This document shows, in pieces, positions 14,085 through 46,558 of a stretch of 64,000 nt of DNA. Origin of the DNA: Woeseiaceae bacterium (lineage in GTDB: Bacteria; Pseudomonadota; Gammaproteobacteria; Steroidobacterales; Woeseiaceae). How positions within the stretch are numbered: the first letter of the stretch is position 1; each line of letters begins with the position of its first letter. Below the pieces are notes generated by a model. It ran no database searches. It was not told the origin of the DNA and worked only from the letters and a program-made list of their open reading frames with translations. The stretch spans positions 184,356 through 248,355 of the forward strand of contig JAJFKT010000026.1 of assembly GCA_021773075.1 (NCBI GenBank), written 5' to 3'. A program made the position numbers and the translations under genes.

Positions 14085-14103
14085 ATCAAAAGGACGAACA
14101 GAT

Positions 14104-14454: not shown

Positions 14455-14581
14455 AAGGATCCGACGTGGAAACAGCGTATGACAACACTATCCGTAACAA
14501 GAACTCCAGATTTGGTCAACAATGGCCGGAGTACACAGCATGACGCAAGAGGCTGCCACGACCGAAACACATCCAAATTCC

Positions 14582-16903: not shown

Positions 16904-17028
16904 ATCAGCTCAGGGACGAGCAAAAAGGAAGATTGGGCGCGGCCGGCGAAGAGCGACGCCAGGGAAGTGCCCGCCCAAATTTTCCATTGATAACAAAAAC
17001 AAGAACACGAATAGCAAGGAGCGAACGA

Positions 17029-18354: not shown

Positions 18355-18364
18355 GGGGTATACG

Positions 18365-27612: not shown

Positions 27613-27790
27613 CTAGCTATGCTCCCTCGATTAAGCGTCGTTATGTGCTGACCTGCCTCATCCGTGGATGTGACGGGCTAGCGAATGTGGACTAATTATA
27701 CTATGTTGATCGGGAGACAGCGTTTCAGTAGATTTACCTAGTCTTGGCCCAGGGTTTCGTTCGACCCGATCACACCTTAAGAATTAAAGA

Positions 27791-28519
27791 ATGACCGAAT
27801 CCGCGAAAATACTAATTGTTGATGATGATGTTCGAATATGCCGAACTCTGAGGTTGTACCTGAAGCGAGAAGGCTATCAGGTCAGTATCGCAACCGATGG
27901 CGAGGAAATGTGGAAGTGTTTCGAGAATGACCTGCCCGATATGATATTGCTCGATATCATGTTGCCCGGCGACGATGGCATAACTCTGGCCCGCGAGCTG
28001 CGAAAAATTTCTGACGTTGGCATCATCATGCTGACTGGAAAAGATGACCCTGTTGATCAGATTATCGGCTTGGAAATCGGTGCCGATGATTACGTGACCA
28101 AGCCGTTTGATGAACGGCAGTTACTCGCCAGGATTCGGAGTCTGCTGCGTCGGCGCGCGATTCCTGTATCGAACACGACGGTTGAAACCGAAGACCAAAA
28201 TAAGAAGATTATTTTTGACGGTTGGGAAATGGATTTATTCACTCATGAACTGGTTTCCCCGGCAGGTCACAGGACGGAACTGACTTCCCATGAATTCAGA
28301 CTCCTTGAGATATTCGTACGAAATCCAGGGGGGGTCTTAAGCCGCGATCAAATTATGCAGAAACTGTACGAACGTGACTGGTCCTTGAATGATAGAAGCG
28401 TAGACGTGCTCATCGGAAAACTGCGCAAGAAAATCGAGGAAGACTCCTCACGACCAAAATTGATTCTGACCATCCGTAATTTTGGCTATAAGTTCGCTGG
28501 TCGAACTTCGAAAAAATGA
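27791..28519 (+). CDS. OmpR/PhoB-family response regulator (receiver plus winged-helix DNA-binding domain)
   Basis: Canonical receiver ILIVDDDVRICRTL...DMILLDIMLPGDDG...IIMLTGKDD...DDYVTKPF. C-terminal trans_reg_C region LTSHEFRLLEIFVRNPGGVLSRDQIM...RSVDVLIGKLRKKIE...ILTIRNFGYKF. Confidence 0.95.
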   Translation: MTESAKILIVDDDVRICRTLRLYLKREGYQVSIATDGEEMWKCFENDLPDMILLDIMLPGDDGITLARELRKISDVGIIMLTGKDDPVDQIIGLEIGADDYVTKPFDERQLLARIRSLLRRRAIPVSNTTVETEDQNKKIIFDGWEMDLFTHELVSPAGHRTELTSHEFRLLEIFVRNPGGVLSRDQIMQKLYERDWSLNDRSVDVLIGKLRKKIEEDSSRPKLILTIRNFGYKFAGRTSKK

Positions 28520-28593
28520 TCGTATTGGATGGGTCCGGTGCCCAGCGCTGTGCGGCTTGAGTGCAGCGCAGTCGTACTAATATCTGCACGAAT

Positions 28594-28670
28594 TTACATG
28601 TAGTTACAATAAATAATTAATCCTTACGAAATCTTGTTTCTCGGGTTACATAGACTCAGTAAGATTACAT
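28594..28670 (+). promoter_or_regulatory. array of TTACAT-like direct repeats upstream of the trihaem cytochrome genes
   Basis: TTACAT 28594, TTACAA 28604, TTACGA 28624, TTACAT 28646, TTACAT 28665 (spacings 10, 20, 22, 19 nt). They lie in the AT-rich 215-bp gap between the OmpR-type regulator gene and the first cytochrome gene. Confidence 0.45.
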
Positions 28671-28734
28671 CTGGGAATGTATTCCAGAAACGAGACATCC
28701 GGCGAGAAACTCAGAACGTAGTCACAGGTGATAA

Positions 28735-29097
28735 ATGAACAGAATGCGAAACGCGAACACTTCAAAAAAACTCGCAGTACTGGTTTTTGTGTTCTTGATT
28801 GCATATTCCACGTCGTATTCAGAATACGGCGATGTGGTATTGGATCGATATAAAGACACTATGGCAGAAGTCGGCCTGGCACCGGTGGTGTTCCCCCACT
28901 GGACGCATCGAATTCAATTTAAGTGCAAGGCTTGCCATGAAGGTATCTTCCCCATGAAAAAGGGGGCGAGTGACATCACTATGTCAGCAATTATCGACGG
29001 CGAGTTTTGTGGCAATTGCCATAACGGAAAAATCGCCTGGGACCCACTTTATTGCGATCGATGTCATTCGCTGACAGAAACCGAAGATAAGCAGTAG
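28735..29097 (+). CDS. trihaem c7-type cytochrome domain protein (paralog 1, minimal)
   Basis: Signal peptide, then FPHWTHRIQFKCKACHEGIFPMKKGASDITMSAIIDGEFCGNCHNGKIAWDPLYCDRCH. This gives three CXXCH motifs in the spacing I associate with the c7-type trihaem domain (TIGR04257 from memory). Confidence 0.85.
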   Translation: MNRMRNANTSKKLAVLVFVFLIAYSTSYSEYGDVVLDRYKDTMAEVGLAPVVFPHWTHRIQFKCKACHEGIFPMKKGASDITMSAIIDGEFCGNCHNGKIAWDPLYCDRCHSLTETEDKQ

Positions 29098-29100
29098 CCC

Positions 29101-29700
29101 ATGTATATCAGGAATTCTCCAAATTTTGGCAGAATGGTGGTCCGGTTTTTCGTTTGTGCGGTCCTTGTGGGCTACGGCAGTCATCAACTTGTGCTGGCAC
29201 AGGAGCCAACAGCGCAGCCGTCAAAACCGGCAGCGGATGACGTGGTTGATCCTGTAGACACAGATGAGTTCGTAGGAGAAATGTACAAGATTGGACTCGG
29301 CTGGCATCCCACCGATCTTGAAGAGTTTCCCACGGACAAGTTCGGTCTGGTTGACTGGGTGGCAACATTGGAAAAGGGACTGATCCAACCAAGAGGCAGC
29401 ATTGCTGCAAACGCTGTGGAGGGAGTTCCTTTCGACATGAATGTACTCATGCCATCGAAAACCGGCATGATTGCAGGCGCACACTTCCCACATAAAACGC
29501 ATACCACCTGGATGGGGTGTGACAGCTGTCATATCAAAATATTTATGCCGCTTGCCGGCTCCAACGATCTAACGATGTCCACGATTGTTGAGGGAAAAGC
29601 ATGTGGCGTCTGTCATGGGAAAGTGGCTTTCCCACTCAATGACTGCGCCCGATGTCACGTGCCGCCGCCGCAGCCCGGTGATAGCGAAGCTGCCAAATAA
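29101..29700 (+). CDS. trihaem c7-type cytochrome domain protein (paralog 2, with N-terminal extension)
   Basis: HFPHKTHTTWMGCDSCHIKIFMPLAGSNDLTMSTIVEGKACGVCHGKVAFPLNDCARCH (three CXXCH). Signal peptide present. An alternative ATG lies at 29134. Confidence 0.85.
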   Translation: MYIRNSPNFGRMVVRFFVCAVLVGYGSHQLVLAQEPTAQPSKPAADDVVDPVDTDEFVGEMYKIGLGWHPTDLEEFPTDKFGLVDWVATLEKGLIQPRGSIAANAVEGVPFDMNVLMPSKTGMIAGAHFPHKTHTTWMGCDSCHIKIFMPLAGSNDLTMSTIVEGKACGVCHGKVAFPLNDCARCHVPPPQPGDSEAAK

Positions 29701-29734
29701 TGGTCAATTACATGTCTTTTTCTAGTCTCTTATC

Positions 29735-30310
29735 ATGCGCACTGCATCGACTTCCCTTCGCGTAGGTTTGGCTATGCTGATCTTCGTTTGTGGTGTCGCT
29801 GCAAACGAAAACATGCCGGCTGCGCTGGCTGAGGCAGATGATGAAAACTCGTCGCCAACGATAGATGCCGAAGCTACCTTCCTGGAGTCGTTGCATTATT
29901 CCCACGAAGAATTCGTGCGTATCTATGCATCTCTTCCAAGAGATGAAGACAACAAGGTTGATTGGGAGCGGGCAACCAGCGAAGGACTTATCAATCCCCT
30001 CGCTTCCATCGATGTAAACAGTGGCGAAGAATTCGTAATGGACCTTAAGGTTGTAATCAAATTCGACGACATGCTGATCAAGGATGTTGTTTTTTCCCAT
30101 GCCGTTCATACGTACTGGCTTAATTGCAGCTCATGTCACCCAAAGCTCTTCAAGCCGGAGATTGCCGCGAATCGTATGACGATGAAAGAGATACGCGCAG
30201 GAAAATATTGTGGTCATTGCCATGGGATGGTTGCATTCCCGACAGATGTGGTAGACGCCCCGAATTTCCGTGCTAATTGTCTAAGGTGCCATCGCGCTCA
30301 AAGAGGATAA
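29735..30310 (+). CDS. trihaem c7-type cytochrome domain protein (paralog 3, with N-terminal extension)
   Basis: FSHAVHTYWLNCSSCHPKLFKPEIAANRMTMKEIRAGKYCGHCHGMVAFPTDVVDAPNFRANCLRCH (three CXXCH). Signal peptide MRTASTSLRVGLAMLIFVCGVAA. Confidence 0.85.
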   Translation: MRTASTSLRVGLAMLIFVCGVAANENMPAALAEADDENSSPTIDAEATFLESLHYSHEEFVRIYASLPRDEDNKVDWERATSEGLINPLASIDVNSGEEFVMDLKVVIKFDDMLIKDVVFSHAVHTYWLNCSSCHPKLFKPEIAANRMTMKEIRAGKYCGHCHGMVAFPTDVVDAPNFRANCLRCHRAQRG

Positions 30311-30316
30311 TCCGAA

Positions 30317-30940
30317 ATGCGATACTACTTAATACTTCTTCTCCTAACCTCGATCTGGACGTTAACTCCGGACTCCATTCTTCTAGCCGAGGATGACGAT
30401 CCAGTGGATACCAAAATCGTCATAGAAAGAGCCAAAAACCTCAAAACCATGCTTGATCACCTGCTTGTTGATTCAAACCACAGCAGTATCCAGAAGGTCA
30501 TCAATGAAGGGGGCGAATCGAGCGAGCCACTCATTGCAGAGGCGCTCAGACTAAAATCGAGTGGTGAGCGATTGCTCACAGAAAAAAAATATTTGGAGGC
30601 CGCGATCGCGCTCCAGTCCGCGCTCGATCACGTTTTTCAGGCTATCAGGTCGGAGCACGACGAGAATGAGCCAGCGGATGCGCTGGAGTTCAGACTGGCA
30701 GAAAGTGTCGAGATAAACGACACGTTTATCTCGGCTGCGCTACGAGTCGTGAACGGCGAGCCGAGCAAGGAAGCGTCTGGTTTGCTGGAAATGGCCAAGG
30801 ATGTTCGAAGTAAAGCGGACATGCAGATCGCCAACGGTGATGTGGTAGCGGCGCTTGATAATCTGAAACAATCAACTGAAATGGCACAGCAAGCCATCAT
30901 GTCGGTCAGAAATGGCAAGGTCATTGAAAGACGCCAATAA
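30317..30940 (+). CDS. hypothetical exported all-helical protein
   Basis: Signal peptide MRYYLILLLLTSIWTLTPDSILLA, then a charged helical sequence with no Cys or haem motifs. It starts 7 nt after the preceding cytochrome gene. Confidence 0.5.
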   Translation: MRYYLILLLLTSIWTLTPDSILLAEDDDPVDTKIVIERAKNLKTMLDHLLVDSNHSSIQKVINEGGESSEPLIAEALRLKSSGERLLTEKKYLEAAIALQSALDHVFQAIRSEHDENEPADALEFRLAESVEINDTFISAALRVVNGEPSKEASGLLEMAKDVRSKADMQIANGDVVAALDNLKQSTEMAQQAIMSVRNGKVIERRQ

Positions 30941-30993
30941 ATAGCTCGAGATTTTGCTAGCGCACGATCCATTGTAGAGGGAGCACAACGATC

Positions 30994-31734
30994 ATGACAC
31001 TTCGAATCAAATACCTATTGATATTATGCGTGTGTTTATCCGCCGGCCTCTTAATTACGAACACAATAGGCGCAGGCCACGCTGCGCAGACAGATAGCGC
31101 GGTGGGAATACAACAGGACGTGCCGAGCACTATTGATGGGAAGGTATCGAAATCTATTAATGTTCCGGGATATACCTATGTTGAGGTTGATACTGGTGAT
31201 GACAAAATCTGGGCCGCTGTACCCAGCACCTCTGTAACTATTGGCGAGCAGGTGTCGTTTTCAATCGGGATACCGATGCAGAACTTCTACAGCAAGACCC
31301 TGCAACGCAATTTTCCAGTCATTTATTTTGTGGACCATTTTATCACTGACGACGGGGCCACAAGCATGAGTGCGGCCGCCGCGGCGGCACATGGCAGCAT
31401 CAGCCAGGAGCCGGTTGCGGAATTATCCGCAGATATCAGCAAGGTGGAAGGCGGCAATTCGATAGCCGAGGTGCATGCGCAAAAAGACGAACTTAACGGG
31501 GAAACGATACGTGTGCGGGGACAGGTAACCAAGTTCACCGCCGGCGTCCTGGGCAAGAACTGGGTTCATATCAGGGACAGAAGTACCACCAATGATCTGA
31601 CCGTTACCACCGATGCTACAGTTGCAGCCAGCGATGTTGTAATTTTCGAAGGAAAACTCGCACTGGATAAGGACTTTGGTTATGGCTATATTTATTCAGT
31701 CATTCTGGAGGATGCAAGTGTAACGAAGGAATAG
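30994..31734 (+). CDS. hypothetical exported protein with OB-fold-like C-terminal region
   Basis: Signal peptide. GYTYVEVDTGDDKIWAAVPSTSVTIGEQVSF, and later ETIRVRGQVTKFTAGVLGKNWVHIRD. I recall this pattern from proteins annotated as OB-fold in metal-reducing bacteria (from memory, unverified). Confidence 0.45.
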   Translation: MTLRIKYLLILCVCLSAGLLITNTIGAGHAAQTDSAVGIQQDVPSTIDGKVSKSINVPGYTYVEVDTGDDKIWAAVPSTSVTIGEQVSFSIGIPMQNFYSKTLQRNFPVIYFVDHFITDDGATSMSAAAAAAHGSISQEPVAELSADISKVEGGNSIAEVHAQKDELNGETIRVRGQVTKFTAGVLGKNWVHIRDRSTTNDLTVTTDATVAASDVVIFEGKLALDKDFGYGYIYSVILEDASVTKE

Positions 31735-31739
31735 TTGAT

Positions 31740-32402
31740 CTAATCAGGAGCGTGCTCTGCCAACCATTCCTTTGCCAATTCCTCTGCTTCCGCAATTTGC
31801 TCTGAATTCATTACTTGCTCAAGCACAGATATGAGTCGTTTGGCAGCCGCGTCGTTATTCGTTGCTGCGATGTTGAACCACTTGTGTGCGTGCACATTAT
31901 CTTCCGCCGCACCCTCTCCGCGAAAATGCATCACGCCAAGCTGACTTTGCGCATCCGCATGACCTTGTTCTGCTGCTTCTAAAAACAGATCATACGCTTG
32001 CTGATAGTCTTGAGTGAGGTCGCTTCCTGAGAGATATCTTTTGCCAATCGCGAACTGTGCCATTGCAAGACCCTGCTCTGCGGCTTTCAACTGCCACGAT
32101 ACACCCAGTTCAACGTTTCGCGTGATGCCATTCCCGACGACGTACATCCTGCCCAGATCAAACTGGGCAATTGCGAGACCTTGCTCCGCCGCTTTGGCAT
32201 ACCAAAGCACTGCGTTCTTATCGTCCCTGGCCTTGCCCTTACCCGTGCGTTCCTTATTGCCATAAAAGCGTCCCAGATTGTACTGGGCGCGGGCATCGCC
32301 AGACTTTGCGGCTGATCTAAGCTCAGAAAAGTCGTTCGCAGTGGCCGGAGAATTTGAACACAGAATAATGAACAGAAATATTGATATCGGGATCCGCAGC
32401 AT
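31740..32402 (-). CDS. Sel1-like (SLR/TPR) repeat protein, exported
   Basis: ATG 32402 gives the signal MLRIPISIFLFIILCSNSPATA. Repeated SLR units: AQYNLGRFY...AVLWYAKAAEQGLAIAQFDLGRMY...GVSWQLKAAEQGLAMAQFAIGKRY...AYDLFLEAAEQGHADAQSQLGVMH... Confidence 0.85.
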   Translation of the reverse strand: MLRIPISIFLFIILCSNSPATANDFSELRSAAKSGDARAQYNLGRFYGNKERTGKGKARDDKNAVLWYAKAAEQGLAIAQFDLGRMYVVGNGITRNVELGVSWQLKAAEQGLAMAQFAIGKRYLSGSDLTQDYQQAYDLFLEAAEQGHADAQSQLGVMHFRGEGAAEDNVHAHKWFNIAATNNDAAAKRLISVLEQVMNSEQIAEAEELAKEWLAEHAPD

Positions 32403-32501
32403 AGCCGTTTGCAATTTCTCGCTCTGATTGGTTCTGGGATAATTATCTTAGAACGTTCTGGACGACGATGTCCAACGATACTCCGCGGCTTTCCGCCTCG
32501 T

Positions 32502-32559
32502 TTACATACGTTTACATTTCATTACAAACAAATATCGGCCGCTCATACGGAAATTACAT
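32502..32559 (+). promoter_or_regulatory. second array of TTACAT-like direct repeats, upstream of the tetrahaem cytochrome gene
   Basis: TTACAT 32502, TTACAT 32512, TTACAA 32522 (exact 10-nt phasing) and TTACAT 32554. Same hexamer family as at 28594-28670. Confidence 0.45.
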
Positions 32560-32636
32560 CCGCCCCATATTATTGCTGTCAATGGAGAGGGAAATTCATC
32601 CAGCTCAGCTTTGAAAACAAACGAAGGGGACATGTA

Positions 32637-33332
32637 ATGAAGACTTTAATCTCAGGCCAAGGGAATCGCATGCTAACGACCCTGTTGTCGGGGTTATTGA
32701 TGGGAATGGGAATCCTGTTCTCAACATCCGCGTTGGCCCAGGACAATACGACGATCGTCGGCTCTCCCCACGATTTTCGAACTCAAGGGTGGGTTAACAA
32801 TGGTAACAACGAAATTTGCGTGGTTTGTCATACACCGCATAACGCAATTTCCCCTCAAGACGGACCGTTGTGGAATCGTTCTTTGACAACCTCGACTTTC
32901 ACGTTGTACACGGCCAATTCTGCAACTCCTGGTAGCGATATTCAGGGCACAGGCTTCAATCAACCGTCGGGTGTATCAAGGCTATGCTTATCCTGCCACG
33001 ACGGGACCATTGCGATCGACGCTTTTGGTGGCTTGACTGGAACGGAAACGATGGATGACATTAACGTCGCCGCAAATCTCGGTGACGTGGTTGGCGGCGT
33101 CGGTGATTTGAGCAACGATCATCCGGTGGCCTTCACTTTTCCGACTACCGATCCTGAAATCGTTCCTAATGTAAACGGCCTGGTCGCGGGTGTGATGCCG
33201 CTATTTGGCGTAGGTCAAGATCAGATGGAGTGCGCTTCCTGCCATGATGTGCATGCTACAAATACATTTGACCAGCTACTCAGGGTTGACAATGACGGTA
33301 GCGCACTCTGCCTGACCTGCCACACAAAATAG
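32637..33332 (+). CDS. tetrahaem c-type cytochrome (stand-alone copy of the N-terminal module of the dodecahaem proteins)
   Basis: ATG 32637 gives the signal MKTLISGQGNRMLTTLLSGLLMGMGILFSTSALA. Motifs CVVCHTPH...PLWNR, CLSCHDGTIA, DHPVAF, CASCHDVH, CLTCH (4 CXXCH). The upstream part of ORF 32409 has no coding character. Confidence 0.85.
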   Translation: MKTLISGQGNRMLTTLLSGLLMGMGILFSTSALAQDNTTIVGSPHDFRTQGWVNNGNNEICVVCHTPHNAISPQDGPLWNRSLTTSTFTLYTANSATPGSDIQGTGFNQPSGVSRLCLSCHDGTIAIDAFGGLTGTETMDDINVAANLGDVVGGVGDLSNDHPVAFTFPTTDPEIVPNVNGLVAGVMPLFGVGQDQMECASCHDVHATNTFDQLLRVDNDGSALCLTCHTK

Positions 33333-33386
33333 CGTGTAAGGTAGTCACACCGCTGTTGGCTCCGACAGGAACCAGGGAAAATCAAC

Positions 33387-33420
33387 ACACCCCCTTCCGG
33401 TTGGTTGGGGGTGTATTTTT
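33387..33420 (+). terminator. rho-independent terminator after the tetrahaem gene
   Basis: ACACCCCC (33387-33394) pairs with GGGGGTGT (33407-33414). An inner CC/GG pairing is possible, and ATTTTT follows. Confidence 0.7.
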
Positions 33421-33492
33421 GTGAAACAATATCTTCATGATCAGGAAGAGCTTGTAAGGCGACATCATAAGATTTTGAAATGAGGTAAGAAG

Positions 33493-34626
33493 ATGCGACG
33501 AGTGCGAAGCAGAAACCTAAAAAATCATTTCCTGGTCGCGGTTTTTCTGTCCGTCTGTCTGGTTCCGGCGTACTCACAAGATCGGATGGACAGCGAAGAT
33601 GGCACAAGCACACTTTTCTATCCAGCGTTGCCGGAAGCTCCACGTATTCAGTACCTGACCAGCTTCTCGGTAGCTGGCGATGTAAAAGAGAAAAAGAAAA
33701 AGAGAAGTGGCTGGTTAAGCGATTTTGTCCTCGGCGAGCAGAACCCCGAGGACGATGAGGGACCGCAAAAACCCTATGGTGTGTCGCTCAACAATGGCCA
33801 GGTCCACGTCGTGGATACTCGGGGAGGCGGTTATGCGATCTTCGATGTGCCCGGTAAAGACTATCGGTTCACCCTCGGGTCAGGGTCTGCTGTTATGTCG
33901 AAACCCATCAACATAGAAATTGACGATGCGGGAACGAAGTATGTCACCGATACCGAGAGAGGTCAGATTCTTGCTTTTGACAGCAACGATAAGTTTCTGA
34001 GGGCCTACGGCAAACGCGGGGAATTCCGGCCGACGGATATTCTGGTTGACGAAGGTCGTTTGTACGTGGTCGATATTCAGGGGCACCGGATCATGGTGCT
34101 CGACAAAGATACTGGCGTCGAACTCAGTTCCTTCGGTGGGCCGGGCGCAGAAGAACATAATTTCTTTCAACCGACCAACATCGCCCTCGGGCCGAACAAG
34201 CATCTATATATTAGTGATACGGGCAATTTCCGTGTGCAAAAATTTACGCGGGACGGTGAGTTTGTGCAAAGTTTTGGAGCAGGCGTTGGCACTGCACCGG
34301 GTGACTTCGCACGCCCCAAAGGTATAGCTGTGGATCGTATGGGCCGGCTTTACGTCGTAGACGCCGCGTTCGAGACTGTTCAAATCTTCAGCAGCCAGGG
34401 TGAGCTGCTATTGTATTTTGGCGAGCCGGCGTCGACGCATCGAGGGGGGCTGGACCTGCCGGCAGATATCGATATTGACTATGACAGCGTCCCCTTTTTC
34501 CAGCAGTACGCGGATCCGGGTTTCAATCTCGAATATATCATTGTCGTTGCCAATCAGTTTGGCAGCAGCAGTGTCAATGTTTTTGGCTTCGGGCGCTATG
34601 AGTCGATGAGATATGAAGACGAGTAA
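33493..34626 (+). CDS. NHL-repeat six-bladed beta-propeller protein 1 (exported)
   Basis: Signal MRRVRSRNLKNHFLVAVFLSVCLVPAYS. Repeated NHL units such as LYVVDIQGHRIMVLDKDTGVELSSFG, FFQPTNIALGPNKHLYISDTGNFRVQKFTRDGEFVQSFG and FARPKGIAVDRMGRLYVVDAAFETVQIFSSQGELLLYFG. Confidence 0.85.
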   Translation: MRRVRSRNLKNHFLVAVFLSVCLVPAYSQDRMDSEDGTSTLFYPALPEAPRIQYLTSFSVAGDVKEKKKKRSGWLSDFVLGEQNPEDDEGPQKPYGVSLNNGQVHVVDTRGGGYAIFDVPGKDYRFTLGSGSAVMSKPINIEIDDAGTKYVTDTERGQILAFDSNDKFLRAYGKRGEFRPTDILVDEGRLYVVDIQGHRIMVLDKDTGVELSSFGGPGAEEHNFFQPTNIALGPNKHLYISDTGNFRVQKFTRDGEFVQSFGAGVGTAPGDFARPKGIAVDRMGRLYVVDAAFETVQIFSSQGELLLYFGEPASTHRGGLDLPADIDIDYDSVPFFQQYADPGFNLEYIIVVANQFGSSSVNVFGFGRYESMRYEDE

Positions 34627-34687
34627 TCGCACCCGCGGCGCATAAATTCTCGATAGAGGTCGGCAAACGGATCTCTGAGATTTACTG

Positions 34688-36697
34688 ATGCGTGAAATCG
34701 TTCTAACTTGCGTTGCACTGGTGTCGATCCTGTTGCCTGACTTCGCGGCCGCCGAGGACGAACTGGCTATTTTTAGGCTAACGAATGTACAGGCCTATAT
34801 AGAATTGCTATATCGAAAGAACGTGTTTAATAATCGAGCGACAGGGATTGAGACTGCTATTGACGATTACAGACCGCAAATCGAAGTCGGCACGTCCACC
34901 AATAGTTACATCTTTCATCCAAAACTGTTGCAGATAAGTTTGGCCGGGAGTTTGCTGTCCGATCGACAGGATATTAGCCGTCAGCAGTTATCAGTAGCGA
35001 CTAATGGGACAACAGAGTCGATCAGCCGTCAAAAACAAGTCTTACTGAACATCAACACAACGTTGCGGCTCTTGAAGGACAAACACTTTCCAACGACTTT
35101 TTCTTATCTGCGCGAAAATCCGGTTGTGCGAACTGGTCTGGAAGGTAGCTTTACACAGACAACAGAAAGATACGGCGTTGACTTTCAATTGCGAGACGTA
35201 TTACCCGTAAGCCTTTCAATAAACGCGTTCACCGATTCGTTCTTTGGGGAGTCCCTTGACCGGATAGTGGACTTTACCTCCGATCGTGTCACCGTAAAGT
35301 CGAGGAAAACCTTTTCCTCGGGTGACCGGTTTGCACTGAGTTACGAGGTGTCGAATCGAAATTCGCGAAACGGAGATCCCAGGAGAATGATCCAGGAAAC
35401 CCTGCGTCGATCGCGAAATCTGGCATTGACATCTAACTGGCGCCTGGGCAGCGGCGATCAGTTGCATATTGATCAAACCGCCAGCTTTAATCGGCGCGAC
35501 AACCCGGATGTGACAGACATCAATTTTTCACCCAGATTTCGCTGGCTACATTCCTCCACACTCCAGTCCAGGTATCGTTACAGTTTCAACCAGTCCGAAA
35601 GACCGGAGTCCATGATCAAGAACCGAACGGAAAGGTCAAGCGCTGCACTGCACTATTCGCCGACGCCGACAATGAATGGTTTCGTTCGCGCCAACTTCGA
35701 TCAATCGGAGGAAAAAAGTCGACTTCTGCAGAGCGCTTTTGGGCTGACGTCGAGAGGTAGTTTCAAGAAAACCTCGAAGATCGGGCTACTCAATTTGTCC
35801 CTTGGGCTTGGTTATGAACGCAAGGATAGGGAGTCCCTGGTAACGCAGATTAGTGTCATAGAGGAATCCGTCGAACTAGTCGGAACTCTACCGATTTTCC
35901 TGTCGAGGGACTTCGTCATTATTGGTACCGTGACGGTCCGCAATGAAACAGGCACCCAGATCCTTAGCGAGGGTGTCGATTATCGCCTGGTTGAGATCGG
36001 TTCCCGGACGCAGATAGAACGATTGATCGGCGGCGGTATTCTTGATGGAGAAACCGTGTTAGTCGACTACGATGCGCAAACTGGCGGGACCTTCGAGTAC
36101 TCACAGATAAGCCAGACGGCGAACCTCGACTTCAAATTTGCGAAATATCATAATATTTTCCTACGCTACCGCAATAACAGGCAAATACTGGAATCCGGTT
36201 TCTCAACGCTTCCGTTTAATTCGGTGAGGTCTGTGGAAGTCGGTCTGCGAGAACAAGTGCCTCTGCGCTGGATGGGACTCCAGCTTTATGGAGAGGCAAG
36301 GTATCTTCACCAGGATGAAGACATCAACCCGTATGAGCAGAAAAGTGTCCTTGTTTCCGTACAGGCACCGTTGCCGTATCGGCTGAAGTTGAGTTTATCG
36401 GCATCGCGGAACTTTGTGGATAATCTGAATTCCGTTGAGGACACGGACATGACGGTATTCAATGCCAACTTGAACTGGAACCCAAGAAGAAACCTGACGG
36501 TCAGGGCGGAAGGATATTACGATAAAGATACCGGAGGGACAATATTACGTAGCAGGACCAAGGGGAAACTAAGAGCGCAATGGCGATATCGAAAAATCCT
36601 TGTTGCAATGGACGCGACGTATGAAAAACAGCGGCAAGGAATTATCGAGAGTGATAATTACGAGCTTTGGTTGCGAATCAGAAGAGAGCTATTTTGA
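34688..36697 (+). CDS. large putative outer-membrane beta-barrel protein (no recognised family)
   Basis: 669 aa. Signal peptide ...LLPDFAAA-ED. Long run of short alternating amphipathic segments rich in R/N/S/Y/F. C-terminal ...YELWLRIRRELF (terminal Phe, OMP-type signal). No Cys or haem motifs. Confidence 0.6.
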   Translation: MREIVLTCVALVSILLPDFAAAEDELAIFRLTNVQAYIELLYRKNVFNNRATGIETAIDDYRPQIEVGTSTNSYIFHPKLLQISLAGSLLSDRQDISRQQLSVATNGTTESISRQKQVLLNINTTLRLLKDKHFPTTFSYLRENPVVRTGLEGSFTQTTERYGVDFQLRDVLPVSLSINAFTDSFFGESLDRIVDFTSDRVTVKSRKTFSSGDRFALSYEVSNRNSRNGDPRRMIQETLRRSRNLALTSNWRLGSGDQLHIDQTASFNRRDNPDVTDINFSPRFRWLHSSTLQSRYRYSFNQSERPESMIKNRTERSSAALHYSPTPTMNGFVRANFDQSEEKSRLLQSAFGLTSRGSFKKTSKIGLLNLSLGLGYERKDRESLVTQISVIEESVELVGTLPIFLSRDFVIIGTVTVRNETGTQILSEGVDYRLVEIGSRTQIERLIGGGILDGETVLVDYDAQTGGTFEYSQISQTANLDFKFAKYHNIFLRYRNNRQILESGFSTLPFNSVRSVEVGLREQVPLRWMGLQLYGEARYLHQDEDINPYEQKSVLVSVQAPLPYRLKLSLSASRNFVDNLNSVEDTDMTVFNANLNWNPRRNLTVRAEGYYDKDTGGTILRSRTKGKLRAQWRYRKILVAMDATYEKQRQGIIESDNYELWLRIRRELF

Positions 36698-36726
36698 CTG
36701 TAGCAACGAAAGTTTACCGGTATGCC

Positions 36727-37749
36727 ATGCGAGCAGCTATTTGCTTTGTCGTTGTGCTTGCGGCGTGCGTGCCGGTCGTGCACGGGCCGATCTACGAAAT
36801 GGAGATTGCAGAGCCAGTGTGGCCGGCAGCCCCCTCAAGGCCACGATTGGCTTTTGTAATGTCTTTTTCGGGCACGGAAGAACTCGGAATTAGAAAAAAC
36901 TTCTTGCAACAGTTACGGGCGTTGATCGGCGGGGCGCGTCAAGTCCGGTTGGTTCGGCCGGTGGCAGTTGTCGAAAGCTCCGACAAGCAGTTGTTTGTCG
37001 CTGATCCCGGAATGCGTGGCGTACATCGTTTCGACCTAGAGAGAGGCGGGTACCAGTTGATTCAGGGAGAGAACGGTCAACCGTTGTCATCGCCTGTCGC
37101 GCTTGCCGCCGGGTTGAGTGGTGAGGTCTATGTTACGGATTCACGTTTGGCCGCCGTATATGTTATTGAGCCCGGTAAAACCGTCGCCGAAAAAGTACCT
37201 CTTGAGGCCCTATTGGCGCGGCCGACCGGGCTGGCGCTGGACCCCTCAAGTGGGCGACTCTATCTCGTCGATACGGGCAGTCATGAAGTAAAAATATTCG
37301 CTCGCGACGGAGCTTTGCTGAAGCGATTTGGTCGCCGCGGTACAGGAACAGGTGAATTTAATTTTCCGACTATGATCTGGATGAACAATGCTGGTGAAAT
37401 TCTGGTTTCAGATTCCATGAATTTTCGGACACAGGTATTCGATTCTGCCGGAAACTTCCTGCGCCAATTTGGTGAAGCTGGCGATGGCGCAGGACATCAG
37501 GCACAAGGCAAGGGAATAGCGACAGACAGTAAGGGCCATGTGTATATCGTTGATTCGATGATGCACGCAGTTCAGGTTTTCGATCCGTCGGGCAACTTTC
37601 TATTCAAGTTAGGCTTTCGAGGGGAAGGTCCAGGAGAGTTCTGGTTACCGGCCGGCATCTTTGTCGGCGAGAGGGATACGATTTATGTGGCCGATTCCTA
37701 TAACGGCCGAATTCAGGTGTTCCGGTATATTGGTGGTAACTCGCCATGA
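36727..37749 (+). CDS. NHL-repeat beta-propeller lipoprotein 2
   Basis: ATG 36727 gives MRAAICFVVVLAAC (lipobox). NHL units: FNFPTMIWMNNAGEILVSDSMNFRTQVFDSAGNFLRQFG, GKGIATDSKGHVYIVDSMMHAVQVFDPSGNFLFKLG, FWLPAGIFVGERDTIYVADSYNGRIQVF. Its stop overlaps the next start (ATGA 37746-37749). Confidence 0.85.
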   Translation: MRAAICFVVVLAACVPVVHGPIYEMEIAEPVWPAAPSRPRLAFVMSFSGTEELGIRKNFLQQLRALIGGARQVRLVRPVAVVESSDKQLFVADPGMRGVHRFDLERGGYQLIQGENGQPLSSPVALAAGLSGEVYVTDSRLAAVYVIEPGKTVAEKVPLEALLARPTGLALDPSSGRLYLVDTGSHEVKIFARDGALLKRFGRRGTGTGEFNFPTMIWMNNAGEILVSDSMNFRTQVFDSAGNFLRQFGEAGDGAGHQAQGKGIATDSKGHVYIVDSMMHAVQVFDPSGNFLFKLGFRGEGPGEFWLPAGIFVGERDTIYVADSYNGRIQVFRYIGGNSP

Positions 37750-39437
37750 AATATGTAGGTTCGTCCTGTCTGATCTTGTTGGTGCTTTACTTGGCCGGCG
37801 GTATGTCCATGGCACAGCAAACATTCAATATGGAAGACAGCCGGCATGATCTGGCCATAGTCCTGTCGACCGGCTATGAAGGCGAGGTCAATGATGCTCA
37901 GTGTATCTTCTGTCATCCTCCCCGCAGTCAGACGCTAAAGATTGGATTGTGGAATGAGGCGCCAGCGGAGAATCTCTTTGACTACCCCTACGGCAGGCAG
38001 GATGAAAAAGGGACACCGGGCAAACCGGACGGTTCTTCGCTTGTCTGCCTCGGCTGTCATGACGGAACTATTGCTCTGGGCGACATACTCAGTCGTACTC
38101 AGTCGATCAGCAATAGTCGAGACACAAAACGTACTGACTTGTCCGACGGTCACCCTATCTCATTCTCGTATGATTCAACTCTGGTGGACAAGAATGATGA
38201 ACTTGAAAATCCAAAGACGTTAAGGCAACAGGTGAGGCTTGACACAACAGGCAAGATCCAGTGTACGAGTTGCCATGATCCCCATGACGATACCAATGGA
38301 AATTTCCTGGTAATGGACAACAGTTCAACAGCGCTGTGTGTCACGTGCCATAAAAAGGCCGGTTGGGGTACATCTCTGCACAATATTTCATCAGCGACCT
38401 GGAACCGTAGGGGACAGGATCCATGGCCATTCAATAATTTGAGAGGTTCAGTTGTAGAGCACGGTTGTTCTAATTGCCACACGCCCCACGCGGCAGGGAA
38501 TGGCCAATATCTTCTCAATTTCAATGTCGAAGAAGACAATTGCGCGGCATGTCACAATGGCAATGTGGCGGCTACAGATATCAGTGCAGAATTTAACAAA
38601 ATCTCGCATCACCCCATTGAGCAGACGACCGATATTCATGCAACGGATGAAGCGATCATTGTGAATGCGGAGGATCGTCATGTTGAGTGTGTTGATTGTC
38701 ATGACCCTCATTCCGTGAGTACGGCCGATGCGAACGGTACCACTGTCACCTGGAAAAATGTTCGCGGCGTGGATGTTAATGGTGGAGAAAAAACAGAGGC
38801 TATCGCAGAATTTGAATCGTGTTTTCGCTGTCATGGTGACAGCCCGGGAAAGGCCGCCATGCCAACCCCGCGCCTGCACGACCAGAATAACGTTCGGCTT
38901 CAGTTTGATAATGGTAATCCATCATTTCATCCGGTAGTTGGCCCCGGTAACAACTCAAACGTCCCATCTTTGATAGCACCATTGAGCGAAAACAGTACTA
39001 TCGCCTGCAGTGATTGCCACTCCAGTGATAACGACTCGAGTCTCGGTGGGAACGGGCCTGATGGACCGCATGGGTCGATTTACCGGTCTTTGTTGATTCG
39101 GGCCTATCAAACACAGGACCAGACACCTGAGAGTCCCGGCGCTTATTCCTTGTGTTATATGTGTCACGATCGGAACAGCATTCTTGGTGATGAGAGCTTT
39201 GCGCAGCACAGATTACACATCAGCGATAACAACACCCCTTGTAGTGTCTGCCACGACCCGCACGGGATAAGCTCTGTACAGGGGAATACAGTCAACAACT
39301 CACACTTGATTAATTTCGATACATCTGTCGTTTTCCCAAACAGCGGTAATGACCTTCATTTTGAGGATCGTGGAGATCTCAGCGGAGCCTGCTTTTTGGC
39401 ATGCCACAATCTTGAACATGACGGTCTTTCATATTGA
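37746..39437 (+). CDS. dodecahaem c-type cytochrome A (11 CXXCH + 1 CX3CH)
   Basis: Signal peptide. Haem motifs: CIFCH, CLGCH, CTSCH, CVTCH, CSNCH, CAACH, CVDCH, CFRCH, CSDCH, CYMCH, CSVCH, plus C-terminal CFLACH. Conserved DGHPISF and NPSFHPVVGPG blocks. Confidence 0.9.
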   Translation: MKYVGSSCLILLVLYLAGGMSMAQQTFNMEDSRHDLAIVLSTGYEGEVNDAQCIFCHPPRSQTLKIGLWNEAPAENLFDYPYGRQDEKGTPGKPDGSSLVCLGCHDGTIALGDILSRTQSISNSRDTKRTDLSDGHPISFSYDSTLVDKNDELENPKTLRQQVRLDTTGKIQCTSCHDPHDDTNGNFLVMDNSSTALCVTCHKKAGWGTSLHNISSATWNRRGQDPWPFNNLRGSVVEHGCSNCHTPHAAGNGQYLLNFNVEEDNCAACHNGNVAATDISAEFNKISHHPIEQTTDIHATDEAIIVNAEDRHVECVDCHDPHSVSTADANGTTVTWKNVRGVDVNGGEKTEAIAEFESCFRCHGDSPGKAAMPTPRLHDQNNVRLQFDNGNPSFHPVVGPGNNSNVPSLIAPLSENSTIACSDCHSSDNDSSLGGNGPDGPHGSIYRSLLIRAYQTQDQTPESPGAYSLCYMCHDRNSILGDESFAQHRLHISDNNTPCSVCHDPHGISSVQGNTVNNSHLINFDTSVVFPNSGNDLHFEDRGDLSGACFLACHNLEHDGLSY

Positions 39438-40456
39438 GCGAGCGAACCGTGACCAGGTCAATAATAATACTGACGCTTTTGATTGCTGTTGCCTGTACGC
39501 CAGCAAGGCTAAAGGATGCTGATATTTCTGCCTCTGAAGCGCAGGCAGTCTGGCCTGATCCGCCACAGGAGGCCCGGATTCGATATCTGTATTCTTTCAG
39601 CGAACCCACTGATCTGGGAATCAAACCCAGGGCGTTCTCGCGTTTCTTACAGGTGTTTACAGGTAAGGAAAGTCAGCGAATGTTGAGGCCGTATTCTATT
39701 GCTGCCGACGATGACATGATTGTTATTGTCGACCCGGGGCTCAAGGTCGTTCACCTCTATATGACCAAGCGAAAGAAATATGCAGTGATTAGCGATGTTG
39801 ATGGTGAAAGCTTTGTATCACCGGTCGGGATCAGCCTGGGGCATGACGCCATCTACCTCACTGACTCCGCCCTAGGCAAGGTTTTCGTTTTCGATCGGCA
39901 AGGTGAACATAAAAATACGATCACAGGTCTGATGCGTCCTACTGGGATTGTCTTTCATTCTGCCAGTCGGCGCCTTTACGTCACCGATACGCTCGAAAAT
40001 CAGATAGTCGTATTCGACGACAAAGGCGTACAACTGAACGCATTTGGAGCAAGAGGGGGAGCGGTCGGTGAATTCAATTTCCCCTCATTTCTCACCCTGC
40101 ATGGCGATATCCTTTACGTGAATGACACGATGAACTTTCGCATACAAGCGTTCACTCTGGATGGATCTCCTGTTGCTTCCTTTGGCAAATCCGGCGATGG
40201 GTCTGGACAGTTCGCGCTTTCAAAAGGGCTGGGTGCAGATAGGCAGGGGCACCTCTATGTTGCTGATTCCCTGTCAAACTACATTCAAATATTCGATGCG
40301 GAGGGCCGCTTTCTATTGTCCTTTGGTGGCATGGGGGGAAACATAGGACAATTCAGGTTGCCGGTTGGTATTTACATATTGAAAAACAGGATATTCGTCG
40401 CTGATTCCCAGAATCAGCGCGTGCAGGTTTTTGAATATATCGGGGGTGACACCTGA
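39434..40456 (+). CDS. NHL-repeat beta-propeller lipoprotein 3
   Basis: The start is either TTG 39434 (TTGA overlap with the upstream stop) or GTG 39449, giving (M)TRSIIILTLLIAVAC (lipobox). NHL units: FNFPSFLTLHGDILYVNDTMNFRIQAFTLDGSPVASFG, LSKGLGADRQGHLYVADSLSNYIQIFDAEGRFLLSFG, FRLPVGIYILKNRIFVADSQNQRVQVF. Confidence 0.85.
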   Translation: MSERTVTRSIIILTLLIAVACTPARLKDADISASEAQAVWPDPPQEARIRYLYSFSEPTDLGIKPRAFSRFLQVFTGKESQRMLRPYSIAADDDMIVIVDPGLKVVHLYMTKRKKYAVISDVDGESFVSPVGISLGHDAIYLTDSALGKVFVFDRQGEHKNTITGLMRPTGIVFHSASRRLYVTDTLENQIVVFDDKGVQLNAFGARGGAVGEFNFPSFLTLHGDILYVNDTMNFRIQAFTLDGSPVASFGKSGDGSGQFALSKGLGADRQGHLYVADSLSNYIQIFDAEGRFLLSFGGMGGNIGQFRLPVGIYILKNRIFVADSQNQRVQVFEYIGGDT

Positions 40457-42213
40457 TGCGGTGCGCGGCGGTTTTGATTGTTCTCCTGCTGTGCGTCGCG
40501 CCCGTTGGAACGGCGTCGGATATCTCTGCTACAAGGCATAATCTGTCCGTTTCCGGATCGGGGTCAGTGACGAGCGGATCCGTTAATGAGGTCTGCGTCT
40601 TTTGTCATACGCCGCACCATTCTTCACAAAGTGCGCCGTTGTGGAACCGCGAACTTCCCACCGGACAAACCTACCAGTTGTACGGTAGCAGCACTCTCGA
40701 TGCGTCACCTGAAAACCCGCAGCTAAGGTCAGGTAATCATTCCCTGCTTTGTCTTTCATGTCATGACGGCACGATTGCATTGGGGGATTTTATTAACCCA
40801 TCCCAGGAAGATACCGGCTTTGTATTTGGGGCTGGCGACAGGGGCAGGCTGGGTACTGATTTGAGTAACGATCATCCGGTTTCATTTACTTACGACAACA
40901 GTTTGTCACTCAGTGATACGCGTCTGCATCCGCCAGGGATCAATGGTGCGAACATCGCACCTCTGCCGTTGCAGGGCGGGCAATATCTTGAATGTACGAC
41001 TTGTCACGACGTACACGACAACACGCTGCAACCATTTCTTTATGAGCAATCACTGAATGGCGACCTTTGTCTTAAGTGCCATGATTTTGCAACCTGGGAC
41101 TTTGCGGTTTCATCGCATGCCACGCAGACCGGAAACACGCCAGGCTCACCCGGACCCTGGGATAACAGGAGAGCGGAATGGCGCGGTTTCAATGTTGCCG
41201 AGAACAGTTGTTTCAACTGTCACACTCCACACGGTGCTCCATCGCCGGAACGATTGCTCAAGGATGTTGAAGAGAATACCTGTTTGCAATGTCACAACGG
41301 CACCGTTGCCGACACCAATATCGCTGCCGAGTTTAACAAGGCCTCCAGCCATCCAATTGATATGACAACGGACGTTCACGATCCCAGTCCAAGCGTCGAG
41401 TCTGCCATTGTCCAGTCCCGGCATGTGGAATGTGTTGATTGCCATAACCCGCATGCGGTCAGTGGTACTGATATTGGCAATCTGCCTGGACCACTAAACG
41501 GTGTCAGGGGGCTCGACTCGTCTGGCCTCGGCGAAGTAAATCCAATTACCGAGGTGTACCAGCTGTGTTTTCGCTGTCATGCCTACAGTGGCAGTAAACC
41601 GGCACCACCGACGGCACGCGTGCACGAACAGACCAATGTCGCAATGGAGTTTGATACCGGTAATCCATCATTCCATCCGATACTCGGACCAAGCGTTAAT
41701 CCTAACGTACCCAGCCTTATCATTGCGCCGGGTAGTATTATTACGTGTATCGACTGTCACAATAGTAATACATCCAGCACGGCCGGTGGCAGTGGCCCTG
41801 ATGGACCGCATGGTTCCACCTTTCCGACATTGCTCGCTCGTCGATATGTGACGGCAGACAATACTCGCGAGAGTGCTGCTGTATATGCGCTGTGTTTGAA
41901 TTGTCACGACTATGACAGCATTCTTAACGATGATAGCTTCGGTGAACATTCCAGGCATCTTGAGAATGGTGATGTGCCCTGTAATGCTTGCCATGACCCG
42001 CACGGTGTCTCATCGACCCAGGCGACATCCAGTAATGGCTTTCCCAACAATACACATTTGATCAACTTCGACACCGGAATTGTCTCGCCTACGCTGGGCA
42101 ACCCCGCACCATTATTTGAAGACGGTGGTACTTTCCGCGGCACGTGTACTCTCAGCTGTCACGGCGAGCAACATTGTCCGGGTGACAATTGCGATATTGA
42201 TGCCCGTTATTAG
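40456..42213 (+). CDS. dodecahaem c-type cytochrome B (11 CXXCH + 1 CX3CH)
   Basis: The start ATG overlaps the upstream stop by 1 nt (TGATG). Signal MRCAAVLIVLLLCVAPVGTA. Motifs: CVFCH, CLSCH, CTTCH, CLKCH, CFNCH, CLQCH, CVDCH, CFRCH, CIDCH, CLNCH, CNACH, plus CTLSCH. Colinear with 37746..39437. Confidence 0.9.
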   Translation: MRCAAVLIVLLLCVAPVGTASDISATRHNLSVSGSGSVTSGSVNEVCVFCHTPHHSSQSAPLWNRELPTGQTYQLYGSSTLDASPENPQLRSGNHSLLCLSCHDGTIALGDFINPSQEDTGFVFGAGDRGRLGTDLSNDHPVSFTYDNSLSLSDTRLHPPGINGANIAPLPLQGGQYLECTTCHDVHDNTLQPFLYEQSLNGDLCLKCHDFATWDFAVSSHATQTGNTPGSPGPWDNRRAEWRGFNVAENSCFNCHTPHGAPSPERLLKDVEENTCLQCHNGTVADTNIAAEFNKASSHPIDMTTDVHDPSPSVESAIVQSRHVECVDCHNPHAVSGTDIGNLPGPLNGVRGLDSSGLGEVNPITEVYQLCFRCHAYSGSKPAPPTARVHEQTNVAMEFDTGNPSFHPILGPSVNPNVPSLIIAPGSIITCIDCHNSNTSSTAGGSGPDGPHGSTFPTLLARRYVTADNTRESAAVYALCLNCHDYDSILNDDSFGEHSRHLENGDVPCNACHDPHGVSSTQATSSNGFPNNTHLINFDTGIVSPTLGNPAPLFEDGGTFRGTCTLSCHGEQHCPGDNCDIDARY

Positions 42214-42255: not shown

Positions 42256-42804
42256 CTAAAGTTTTGGCGTGGGACGGTCCCTGCCTTCGCCAAATAGGCG
42301 GCCGACGCTCATTCGCATAGCGTCAGTTGCGTCGGCGGTCCGCAGGGCCAGACGAAGGCATGTACCAATTGCGGGTTGCAGCGGCATCGCATCCAAATCC
42401 ATGCCGTCCAACAGGTTCTTCACGTAAAGGCCAAGTTCGGTGTCCCCCGAGGTGCTTAGGTGGCGACGAAAGAACAGCGTGTCTGTGTCCTCGGTGCGCG
42501 TCATTAATTGCAGGAACGCGTAGGCTCTGCCGGATATCTGCAGATCACCGTCCCGGGTTGCGCGTAGAACACGAAGCTTGTTTTCCACCAACGTCAGGCT
42601 GAAGCCAAGATCCACGTCTTCGAAAAAAACCGTCACGACCCGGTCACCGAGAAAGTCGAGATCTCCGCCAGCCAGATGCTCCGCGAACATGAGGTTCAAT
42701 GCATGTTCGGTTGGCAGCCGGGCAAAACGTCTGGGCAACCAACCCAGCGACTTTGCAACGATGAACGGTACGACCGGTGGTTTTGCATTGGCTTCGGTCA
42801 TCAT
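42256..42804 (-). CDS. ubiT: SCP2-domain ubiquinone anaerobic biosynthesis accessory factor UbiT (YhbT-like)
   Basis: 182-aa protein of SCP2 lipid-binding type, in an operon with ubiU/ubiV homologues. ATGA overlap with the ubiD stop. Confidence 0.7.
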   Translation of the reverse strand: MMTEANAKPPVVPFIVAKSLGWLPRRFARLPTEHALNLMFAEHLAGGDLDFLGDRVVTVFFEDVDLGFSLTLVENKLRVLRATRDGDLQISGRAYAFLQLMTRTEDTDTLFFRRHLSTSGDTELGLYVKNLLDGMDLDAMPLQPAIGTCLRLALRTADATDAMRMSVGRLFGEGRDRPTPKL

Positions 42805-46220: not shown

Positions 46221-46558
46221 CTTTGGACCTGTGTTCAAGCGAATCTTAAATTGTCCATACTCCTGGGCGGTTTGGCGATACATACTTTCCACAGCTTGCC
46301 ACGCCTGATCGGAGGGTAGTGCGGCTGGCTAGATTGTTCCTGGCACATAATCCGTGGTTCTACGAAAGTACAGACAATTTAACCGCCGCTGATCGATTGT
46401 TGGCTCCCTTCGCGAAACACGGAGCGAGCCTCCGAGCCCACCGATTCGCGGTAGCGGGGTAAAACCCTTACAAAATCTCGACGGTGTTTATAGATCTTGC
46501 TGTTTTCGACGAATTAGAATATGAATGGGTTGACCTTGGATACTAGATTTAGCCCAAT

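Follow-up and report, generated by a model that had tools for sequence, protein, structure and literature searches.

What kind of system is encoded by a gene cluster so crowded with haem-binding motifs? The cluster occupies positions 28735 to 42213 of a 64,000-nucleotide stretch (hereafter, the window) of contig JAJFKT010000026.1 from a Woeseiaceae bacterium. A sequence-only reading of this DNA, made without database searches, described the locus as a candidate undescribed system for extracellular electron transfer or cytochrome assembly, built from noncanonical parts. Our analysis places it elsewhere: the locus is a variant of two known gene clusters, the OmcE nanowire cluster and the Uet cluster, and not a new kind of system. 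On balance, it probably specifies an outer-membrane electron-transfer apparatus of the OmcE/Uet type, in which a conduit carries an OmcE-like wire.

The locus contains 13 open reading frames (ORFs), which specify six secreted c-type cytochromes, three NHL propellers, a barrel of 669 amino acids (aa), two small secreted proteins, and a Sel1-repeat protein; features named below lie on the + strand unless marked (-). Three cytochromes are trihaem proteins, one is a tetrahaem protein, and two have 11 CXXCH motifs and one CX3CH motif each, so that a motif count over the ORFs gives 35 CXXCH and 2 CX3CH, the same cytochromes and totals as in the sequence-only reading. The ORFs of that reading were likewise all found in place, apart from two gene starts: the tetrahaem gene starts at 32637 (giving 231 aa), not at 32409, and the second NHL gene most likely begins at 36727. 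In six frames, the entire window has 39 CXXCH motifs, of which the 4 lying outside the cytochrome genes are off-frame or stop-containing. Because no CXXCH outside the locus is ever in frame, the clustering goes far beyond what chance would give and no further c-type cytochrome is encoded in the window, which upholds the earlier statement that it encodes no quinol dehydrogenase cytochrome. That it has no ccm genes also held, in that no ccm or ccs gene was found among the approximately 40 products scanned. Pfam and NCBIfam scans of the products detected no catalytic redox enzyme encoded in the locus.

The argument turns on the tetrahaem cytochrome (32637 to 33332), a candidate filament subunit. 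When it was searched against all PDB sequences with phmmer, the only significant matches were OmcE filaments, namely 7TFS from Geobacter sulfurreducens (E = 5e-22) and 9YUQ from Desulfuromonas soudanensis (E = 6e-22). BLASTP aligns 203 aa of it with G. sulfurreducens OmcE at 39% identity (E = 1e-27); the OmcE proteins of G. sulfurreducens and D. soudanensis, both proven filament formers, share 41% identity with each other. The protein is an OmcE homologue. It has exactly eight His residues, four within CXXCH motifs and four elsewhere, and these eight are the invariant His residues in an alignment of 91 sequences made up of its own relatives and relatives of the Geobacter-type OmcE. Their conservation indicates that the eight His are the eight haem ligands, with none to spare. 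The protein also resembles OmcE in the order of its His residues and CXXCH motifs, in its length class (approximately 200 to 240 aa), and in that the chain ends right after the fourth haem motif. Its gene stands alone and is followed by a 160-bp gap. A promoter and terminator scan returned site counts no higher than those in shuffled sequence, and we place no weight on a hairpin after the tetrahaem gene.

The three NHL proteins are also related to a component of the OmcE cluster. NHL beta-propeller lipoprotein 1 (33493 to 34626) is paired with the tetrahaem gene, lipoprotein 2 (36727 to 37749; NHL domain, E = 5e-29) with the first of the large cytochrome genes, and lipoprotein 3 (39434 to 40456; ScyF-like NHL match) with the second; in the latter two pairs, the stop codon of the NHL gene overlaps the start of the cytochrome gene. 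Compared with the 361-aa NHL lipoprotein encoded beside Geobacter omcE, they match at E values of 6e-35, 3e-66, and 7e-50, respectively. NHL1 and NHL2 exceed the Pfam NHL cutoff, and NHL3 is assigned by its homology to the Geobacter protein. NHL2 further matches solved six-bladed NHL propellers (TRIM71 NHL, E = 2e-61), and the NHL proteins have weak matches to SGL/gluconolactonase-like models. The two clear lipoboxes previously noted are both present (LAAC in NHL2 and AVAC in NHL3), and NHL1, which had not been counted, also has a lipobox-like Cys (LSVC in the window, LSAC in the nearest relative), a motif found in 43 of its 55 orthologues. Most NHL orthologues have a classic lipobox followed by a conserved P-x-P-P-x-x-P-R-I motif.

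At the head of the locus lie three c7-type trihaem cytochromes, each with three CXXCH motifs and each exceeding the curated cutoffs of both Cytochrome_C7 and TIGR04257 (40 bits for the latter). The first (28735 to 29097; 120 aa; TIGR04257, 70 bits) is a PpcA-like periplasmic carrier, and the other two, of 199 aa (29101 to 29700; 61.4 bits) and 191 aa (29735 to 30310; 62.6 bits), have N-terminal extensions, that of the former being approximately 100 aa long. The best PDB match of the first, the only c7 protein that was compared with PDB, is domain C of GSU1996 (E = 1e-36).

The two large cytochromes carry the OmcE relationship beyond the tetrahaem protein. Dodecahaem cytochrome A (37746 to 39437; 563 aa; 11 CXXCH plus CFLACH) and its paralogue B (40456 to 42213; 585 aa; 11 CXXCH plus CTLSCH) are 43% identical, and the N-terminal approximately 200 residues of both constitute an OmcE-like module. 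The N terminus of A matches OmcE structures at an E value of 1e-14 and G. sulfurreducens OmcE at 4e-19, and residues 1 to 209 of B are 39% identical to G. sulfurreducens OmcE (E = 4e-43). Aligning thirds of the family alignment with hhalign shows that residues 207 to 345 repeat the part of the module that holds haems 1 to 3 (probability, 97%; E = 5e-11) and that residues 346 to 563 partly repeat haems 2 to 4 (probability, 81%); the second repeat retains the N-terminal His motif of the first. The C-terminal CX3CH (C-x-L-x-C-H-G) is kept in 17 of the 17 orthologues listed, and since it is universal among them, the family carries 12 haems (4 + 3 + 5) rather than 11. Outside the haem motifs, the family alignment has 14 invariant His residues, more than 12 bis-His haems need. 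Cytochrome A of the window and of three related loci (L001, L060, and L061) has lost a near-invariant His after the first haem motif, reading CIFCHPPR (PPR or APR) in place of CxxCHTPH, whereas cytochrome B keeps the TPH His; to judge from this substitution, one haem of cytochrome A may need a ligand from elsewhere. Several of the 12-haem orthologues in loci L002, L003, L005, L007, L027, L033, L048, and L064 end in long poly-Gly tails with Met and Cys residues, such as GGGGGGMGGGGGMACMGGGG; the dodecahaem proteins of the window have no such tails.

Between the first two NHL genes lies the gene for the 669-aa protein (34688 to 36697), which the sequence-only reading regarded as an outer-membrane-type barrel. 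That assignment is borne out by a signal peptide, a C-terminal Phe, and an AlphaFold2 model (built with 23 homologues) that has a predicted local distance difference test score (pLDDT) of 89 and is nearly all beta, with approximately 28 to 30 strands and a domain inserted at about residues 400 to 465. The invariant residues of the family concentrate at positions 419 to 468, within this inserted domain, and family members typically end in an R-x-F type sequence. The protein has a single Cys and no CXXCH, and it matches no Pfam family at E ≤ 0.01, MtrB_PioB included. The top Foldseek match of the model is MtrB (6R2Q_B), but at a template modeling (TM) score of only 0.32 and 9% identity; other matches are to generic large barrels at TM scores of about 0.3 (TonB-dependent receptors, LptD, and ushers), and no family can be assigned from them. 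A chaperone-usher pore was considered and rejected, the TM score being only about 0.26. A profile search of 1.84 billion representatives found 2,066 clusters (at 50% identity) at E ≤ 1e-3 and 562 at E ≤ 1e-30; the barrel thus belongs to a large, unnamed family that has no Pfam model. The 594-aa barrel present in some related loci is a distant member of this family (97.8%, E = 1e-12).

Whether these genes form a unit conserved across genomes, a question posed by the sequence-only reading, has a clear answer: the order tetrahaem-NHL-barrel-NHL-12-haem recurs in many of them. A genome scan found 18 loci. One of these, in a Woeseiaceae metagenome-assembled genome (L001), has all thirteen genes at 73 to 92% identity, along with the upstream regulator set; on this resemblance, a Woeseiaceae source for the window is very likely. 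The five-gene core, which extends across Gamma- and Betaproteobacteria, is also present in other Gammaproteobacteria, “Candidatus Thiodiazotropha,” Thiobacillus, Aromatoleum tolulyticum ATCC 51758, Phycisphaeraceae, and Victivallales, and a scan with the 12-haem alignment recovered it in at least 566 confirmed metagenome loci. With an iterated hidden Markov model, 49 of the 59 eligible loci proved to have the barrel gene immediately upstream of the NHL and 12-haem genes, and 41 of 45 have the tetrahaem gene. The fixed adjacencies are those of the tetrahaem gene with NHL1 and of NHL2 or NHL3 with a 12-haem gene, which the NHL gene precedes in nearly all loci. Restricted to close relatives are the c7 trio, the 207-aa protein, the Sel1 gene, NHL3 (L001, L060, and L061 only), and the second 12-haem gene.

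Other loci add genes of their own, specifying a 5-haem cytochrome, a SurA-like prolyl isomerase (in eight loci), a cytochrome b561-like membrane protein, TPR proteins, CcmE, and ResB/CcsB. The cluster is extended in L003, L005, L007, L013, L027, and L033 by 8-haem and 7-haem cytochromes, a cytochrome b561-like protein, a trihaem protein of approximately 350 aa, another NHL protein, and a cytochrome with 14 to 16 haems; the b561-like protein of these extended loci is a candidate inner-membrane quinone link. In one NCBI genome (L103, 1 to 6775), the five-gene core adjoins, back to back, genes for type IV pilus minor pilins and PilY1, which may be coincidence.

How, then, does the locus relate to systems already described? 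According to a 2025 preprint on the D. soudanensis OmcE filament, the minimal omcE cluster consists of OmcE, two beta-propeller lipoproteins, a large barrel, and two multihaem cytochromes, and OmcE homologues with a nearby porin gene occur in five phyla, Pseudomonadota included. The same preprint regards filament secretion, anchoring, initiation, and termination as unsolved and finds no tip-like candidate in omcE operons. The window shares with the Geobacter omcE cluster a homologous tetrahaem subunit, homologous NHL lipoproteins, a large barrel gene beside them, and a PpcA-type c7 trihaem gene heading the locus. In G. sulfurreducens, omcE is adjoined by an NHL propeller and a 752-aa barrel, which substantiates the analogy that the sequence-only reading had drawn, that NHL and porin-like genes flank a Geobacter nanowire gene. 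The two clusters differ in that their barrels are unrelated at the sequence-profile level, in that the window locus has neither glycosylation genes nor resB/ccsB, and in their hosts, a Woeseiaceae gammaproteobacterium not being a classical metal reducer as Geobacter is.

The second point of reference is the Uet cluster of “Candidatus Tenderia electrophaga,” which comprises a tetrahaem cytochrome, a peptidyl-prolyl isomerase (PPIase), a 28-strand barrel, three c7 trihaem proteins, a cupredoxin, two NHL proteins, and an undecahaem cytochrome. Its proposed role is that of a conduit for electron uptake, it has since been reported in Gallionella, and its support is genomic and expression-based only; GSU1996 domain C was reported as the match of UetD, UetE, and UetG, as it is for the c7 protein of the window at 28735 to 29097. 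Matched by description of its parts, the window locus resembles Uet in its tetrahaem protein, its barrel of about 28 strands, its three c7 proteins, its NHL propellers, and a cytochrome with 11 CXXCH motifs. It lacks the PPIase (UetB), the cupredoxin (UetF), and the ccsAB/bat genes of Uet, its gene order differs from uetA-J, and it has a third NHL gene and a second large cytochrome gene. Some related loci do show a Uet-like order of tetrahaem-PPIase-barrel-NHL-12-haem, and two homologue loci derived from NCBI have the ordinary core, not the Uet order. With its conserved extra CX3CH motif, the window family carries 12 haems, and UetJ is a possible member of it.

These two precedents account for the claims of the sequence-only reading that did not survive. 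The system cannot be called undescribed, nor its parts noncanonical, since OmcE nanowires had already been linked to the families of the tetrahaem, NHL, and c7 proteins and the same parts list has been named Uet; OmcE homologues with a porin gene close by had likewise been reported in Pseudomonadota. The broader proposal of an outer-membrane or extracellular cytochrome system is supported, and of the two functions that had been suggested, we favor the second, a cluster for an extracellular cytochrome polymer, because the tetrahaem protein is homologous to OmcE. What is distinctive about the locus is its separate barrel family, its three-repeat 12-haem cytochrome, the very wide distribution of its core, and its presence in a Woeseiaceae genome.

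Other electron-transfer systems are further removed, as the sequence-only reading had surmised for MtrA/B/C, PioA/B, and Cyc2. Membership in the MtrCAB/PioAB/MtoAB group was rejected, with scores of 55.9 and 57.2 bits against the MtrA/DmsE model TIGR03508 (cutoff, 192.2) and no Pfam match to MtrB_PioB, and Cyc2 was rejected because the haem-free barrel has no fused haem motif. The proposed principle, a multihaem rod in a large barrel, is nevertheless that of Mtr (MtrB has 26 strands and is the top structural match), whereas Mtr systems have neither NHL lipoproteins nor an OmcE-like subunit. OmcS, a hexahaem protein, has no sequence relationship with OmcE. The OmcS-companion (osc) assembly cluster of Geobacter, described by Shen et al. 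in 2025, reportedly combines filament cytochrome genes with a beta-propeller-like protein and a channel-like outer-membrane component; its concept of a filament cytochrome with a propeller and a channel is shared by the window family, related loci of which also encode a prolyl isomerase chaperone. Multihaem cytochromes are co-expressed with NHL propellers in Desulfovibrio ferrophilus IS5 (DFE_448-451 and DFE_461-465), where electron uptake was proposed. DFE_449 (12 haem sites) was found in the outer-membrane fraction, and the passages on the two clusters, which we liken to the window by description, mention no barrel. For the Woeseiaceae themselves, only mtrCAB-type genes are noted in a paper on the group.

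What the analysis shows is the homologies, the conservation of haem ligands, the barrel fold, the lipoboxes, and the gene order. From them, we infer where the proteins reside, what threads through the barrel, what polymerizes, and which way electrons flow. The three PpcA-like c7 proteins would carry electrons through the periplasm to or from a 12-haem cytochrome whose three OmcE-like repeats, with an estimated length of approximately 10 nm, may sit in or against the barrel of about 30 strands and so cross the outer membrane. Outside the cell, the 231-aa tetrahaem protein would accept or donate electrons and would most likely do so as a polymer whose subunits are joined by His-haem bonds, like those of OmcE filaments, and the OmcE-like N-terminal module of the 12-haem protein would offer a natural docking or nucleation point for this polymer. 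The NHL lipoproteins, each encoded by a gene paired with one cytochrome gene, are probably assembly, export, or anchoring partners at the outer membrane, and the locus is probably regulated by the response regulator and hybrid kinase encoded beside it. As to the direction of flow, Thiobacillus, Thiodiazotropha, and Aromatoleum carry the same core, and Tenderia and Gallionella carry Uet (likened by description); because these hosts are mostly oxidizers or denitrifiers, uptake of electrons, or their flow both ways, is as likely as metal reduction. A bolder form of this scheme holds that the 12-haem protein is a covalent mini-filament of three OmcE-like units that threads the barrel, that its N-terminal module nucleates and anchors tetrahaem polymerization outside the cell, that the NHL proteins are chaperones dedicated to each cytochrome, and that, the module being widespread in sulfur oxidizers, denitrifiers, and likely Woeseiaceae, the wires serve electron uptake or cell-to-cell exchange in ordinary sediment bacteria; we advance it as a tentative extension that is rather unlikely to hold in full.

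Several observations weigh against an OmcE/Uet-type apparatus bearing a wire. A haem-free AlphaFold2 model of the tetrahaem protein from the 91-sequence alignment has a pLDDT of only 63 and no Foldseek match, and OmcE-like tetrahaem proteins are very common (7,665 matches), so that not all need form filaments. Homology between the barrel and the 752-aa Geobacter omcE barrel was rejected (BLAST, E = 0.4; hhalign probability, 1.4%, or 12% with a 70-sequence profile), and with no detectable relation between them, function cannot be transferred by homology. The large cytochromes of the Geobacter cluster have 9 and 8 haems, in contrast to the 12 haems and OmcE-like N-terminal module of those in the window, and the dodecahaem proteins match them only partially, at 23 to 28% identity (best E value, approximately 7e-9). 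The window contains no inner-membrane partner, and the roles proposed for the barrel and 12-haem families are predictions from sequence and model.

The locus could also be a conduit of the Uet style that builds no filament. The barrel-lodged 12-haem protein and the tetrahaem protein would then act as single surface cytochromes, feeding a microaerobic or denitrifying respiratory chain with electrons taken from Fe(II), minerals, or other cells. Its parts list equals that of Uet, down to a cytochrome with 11 CXXCH motifs, the one c7 protein tested shares the GSU1996 match, most carriers of the core are oxidizers or denitrifiers, and genes resembling an oxygen-independent ubiquinone pathway lie directly downstream; set against this, the tetrahaem protein keeps every sequence feature of two proven filament formers with no His to spare, and Uet itself has genomic and expression support only and differs from the window in gene order and in its UetB and UetF genes, the likeness being one of described parts and not of sequence. 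We regard a conduit without a filament as a serious possibility, albeit probably not the correct one.

If there is a filament, its subunits might instead be the 12-haem cytochromes, the small tetrahaem protein serving as a cap, tip, or adaptor. The N-terminal module of cytochrome B is in fact more OmcE-like (E = 4e-43) than is the tetrahaem protein (E = 1e-27), the second repeat keeps the N-terminal His motif of the first, the family has more conserved His than its bis-His haems need, and the window has two diverged paralogues, each with an NHL partner of its own. We nonetheless consider this assignment improbable: no solved filament has a subunit of the 12-haem type, whose 560 to 590 aa suit a barrel-spanning rod, as does the 10-haem MtrA in MtrB, and it is the tetrahaem gene that occurs in nearly every locus and stands alone before its 160-bp gap, as genes for major subunits often do. 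Even less credible, in our judgment, is a periplasmic redox module for a soluble substrate, with an ordinary solute porin for a barrel, NHL proteins that act as enzymes or binding proteins, and no electron transfer at the outer membrane. NHL propellers can be enzymes, as the SGL/gluconolactonase-like matches recall, and the localization of the proteins is a prediction, but solute porins are far smaller than a barrel of about 30 strands, the barrel gene is locked in its place between cytochrome/NHL pairs in 49 of 59 loci, a proven extracellular filament protein is a homologue of the tetrahaem protein, and the locus encodes no catalytic redox enzyme.

The remaining genes of the locus are accessory. 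A 207-aa secreted protein without Cys (30317 to 30940) matches no Pfam or NCBIfam model and has homologues only in L001 and L060. It is followed by a 246-aa secreted two-domain protein (30994 to 31734), a recurrent accessory of the cluster family that has a weak TOBE match, no relative in the PDB search, and homologues adjoining the NHL and 12-haem genes in at least nine other loci. On the opposite strand, the Sel1-repeat protein (31740 to 32414 [-]; Sel1, E = 4e-27), which has a signal peptide and occupies the same place in L001 and L060, is a candidate adaptor or chaperone.

Directly upstream of the locus, an OmpR-type response regulator (27791 to 28519; Response_reg and Trans_reg_C domains) has a counterpart in the same position in L001 (91% identity) and, from its position, is a candidate regulator of the locus. 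Divergent from it is a set of three genes (23487 to 27612 [-]) that a domain scan resolved into a 355-aa protein resembling outer-membrane proteins and ending in Phe, a 160-aa protein, and a PAS/HAMP hybrid histidine kinase; the first two have no Pfam match, and the set is kept beside the cluster in L001 (79 to 87% identity), possibly acting as the sensor for the locus. Over window positions 24000 to 42000, which span the sensor genes and the cytochrome locus, the G+C content is 47 to 52%, compared with 52 to 57% on the flanks; a block of lower G+C would be consistent with the sensor genes and the cytochrome locus having been acquired together by horizontal transfer.

Downstream (42256 to 46292 [-]) are genes for an SCP2-domain protein, UbiD, and two U32-peptidase-family proteins, which we take to resemble the oxygen-independent ubiquinone pathway (UbiT, UbiD, and UbiU/UbiV), a pathway that would fit respiration at low oxygen. 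Within the 4.5 kb downstream of the cluster in L001, none of these genes has a homologue, and a Sel1-like gene follows the last cytochrome instead. Farther away, positions 12546 to 20137 of the window encode two DUF5666-repeat proteins, a DUF6502 protein, a TPR protein, and a family-2 glycosyltransferase, with no link seen to the cytochrome locus.

For the wider family, the analysis shows that the label “undecahaem” hides a conserved twelfth haem site (CX3CH) and that the barrel represents a large family with no Pfam model of its own. A 12-haem protein with an OmcE-like end, encoded beside a dedicated barrel, is a concrete candidate for the connection of an OmcE-type wire, and if it does anchor such wires, it would be the missing base or anchor of these nanowires. 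The cultured strain Aromatoleum tolulyticum ATCC 51758, which carries the same five-gene core, offers a tractable model. An OmcE-type system in a Woeseiaceae genome would add to the common sediment bacteria that are suspected of electron exchange with minerals or neighbors and, if the bolder form of the scheme is true, the use of cytochrome wires would extend beyond metal reducers to ordinary bacteria of marine sediments, for electron uptake or cell-to-cell exchange.

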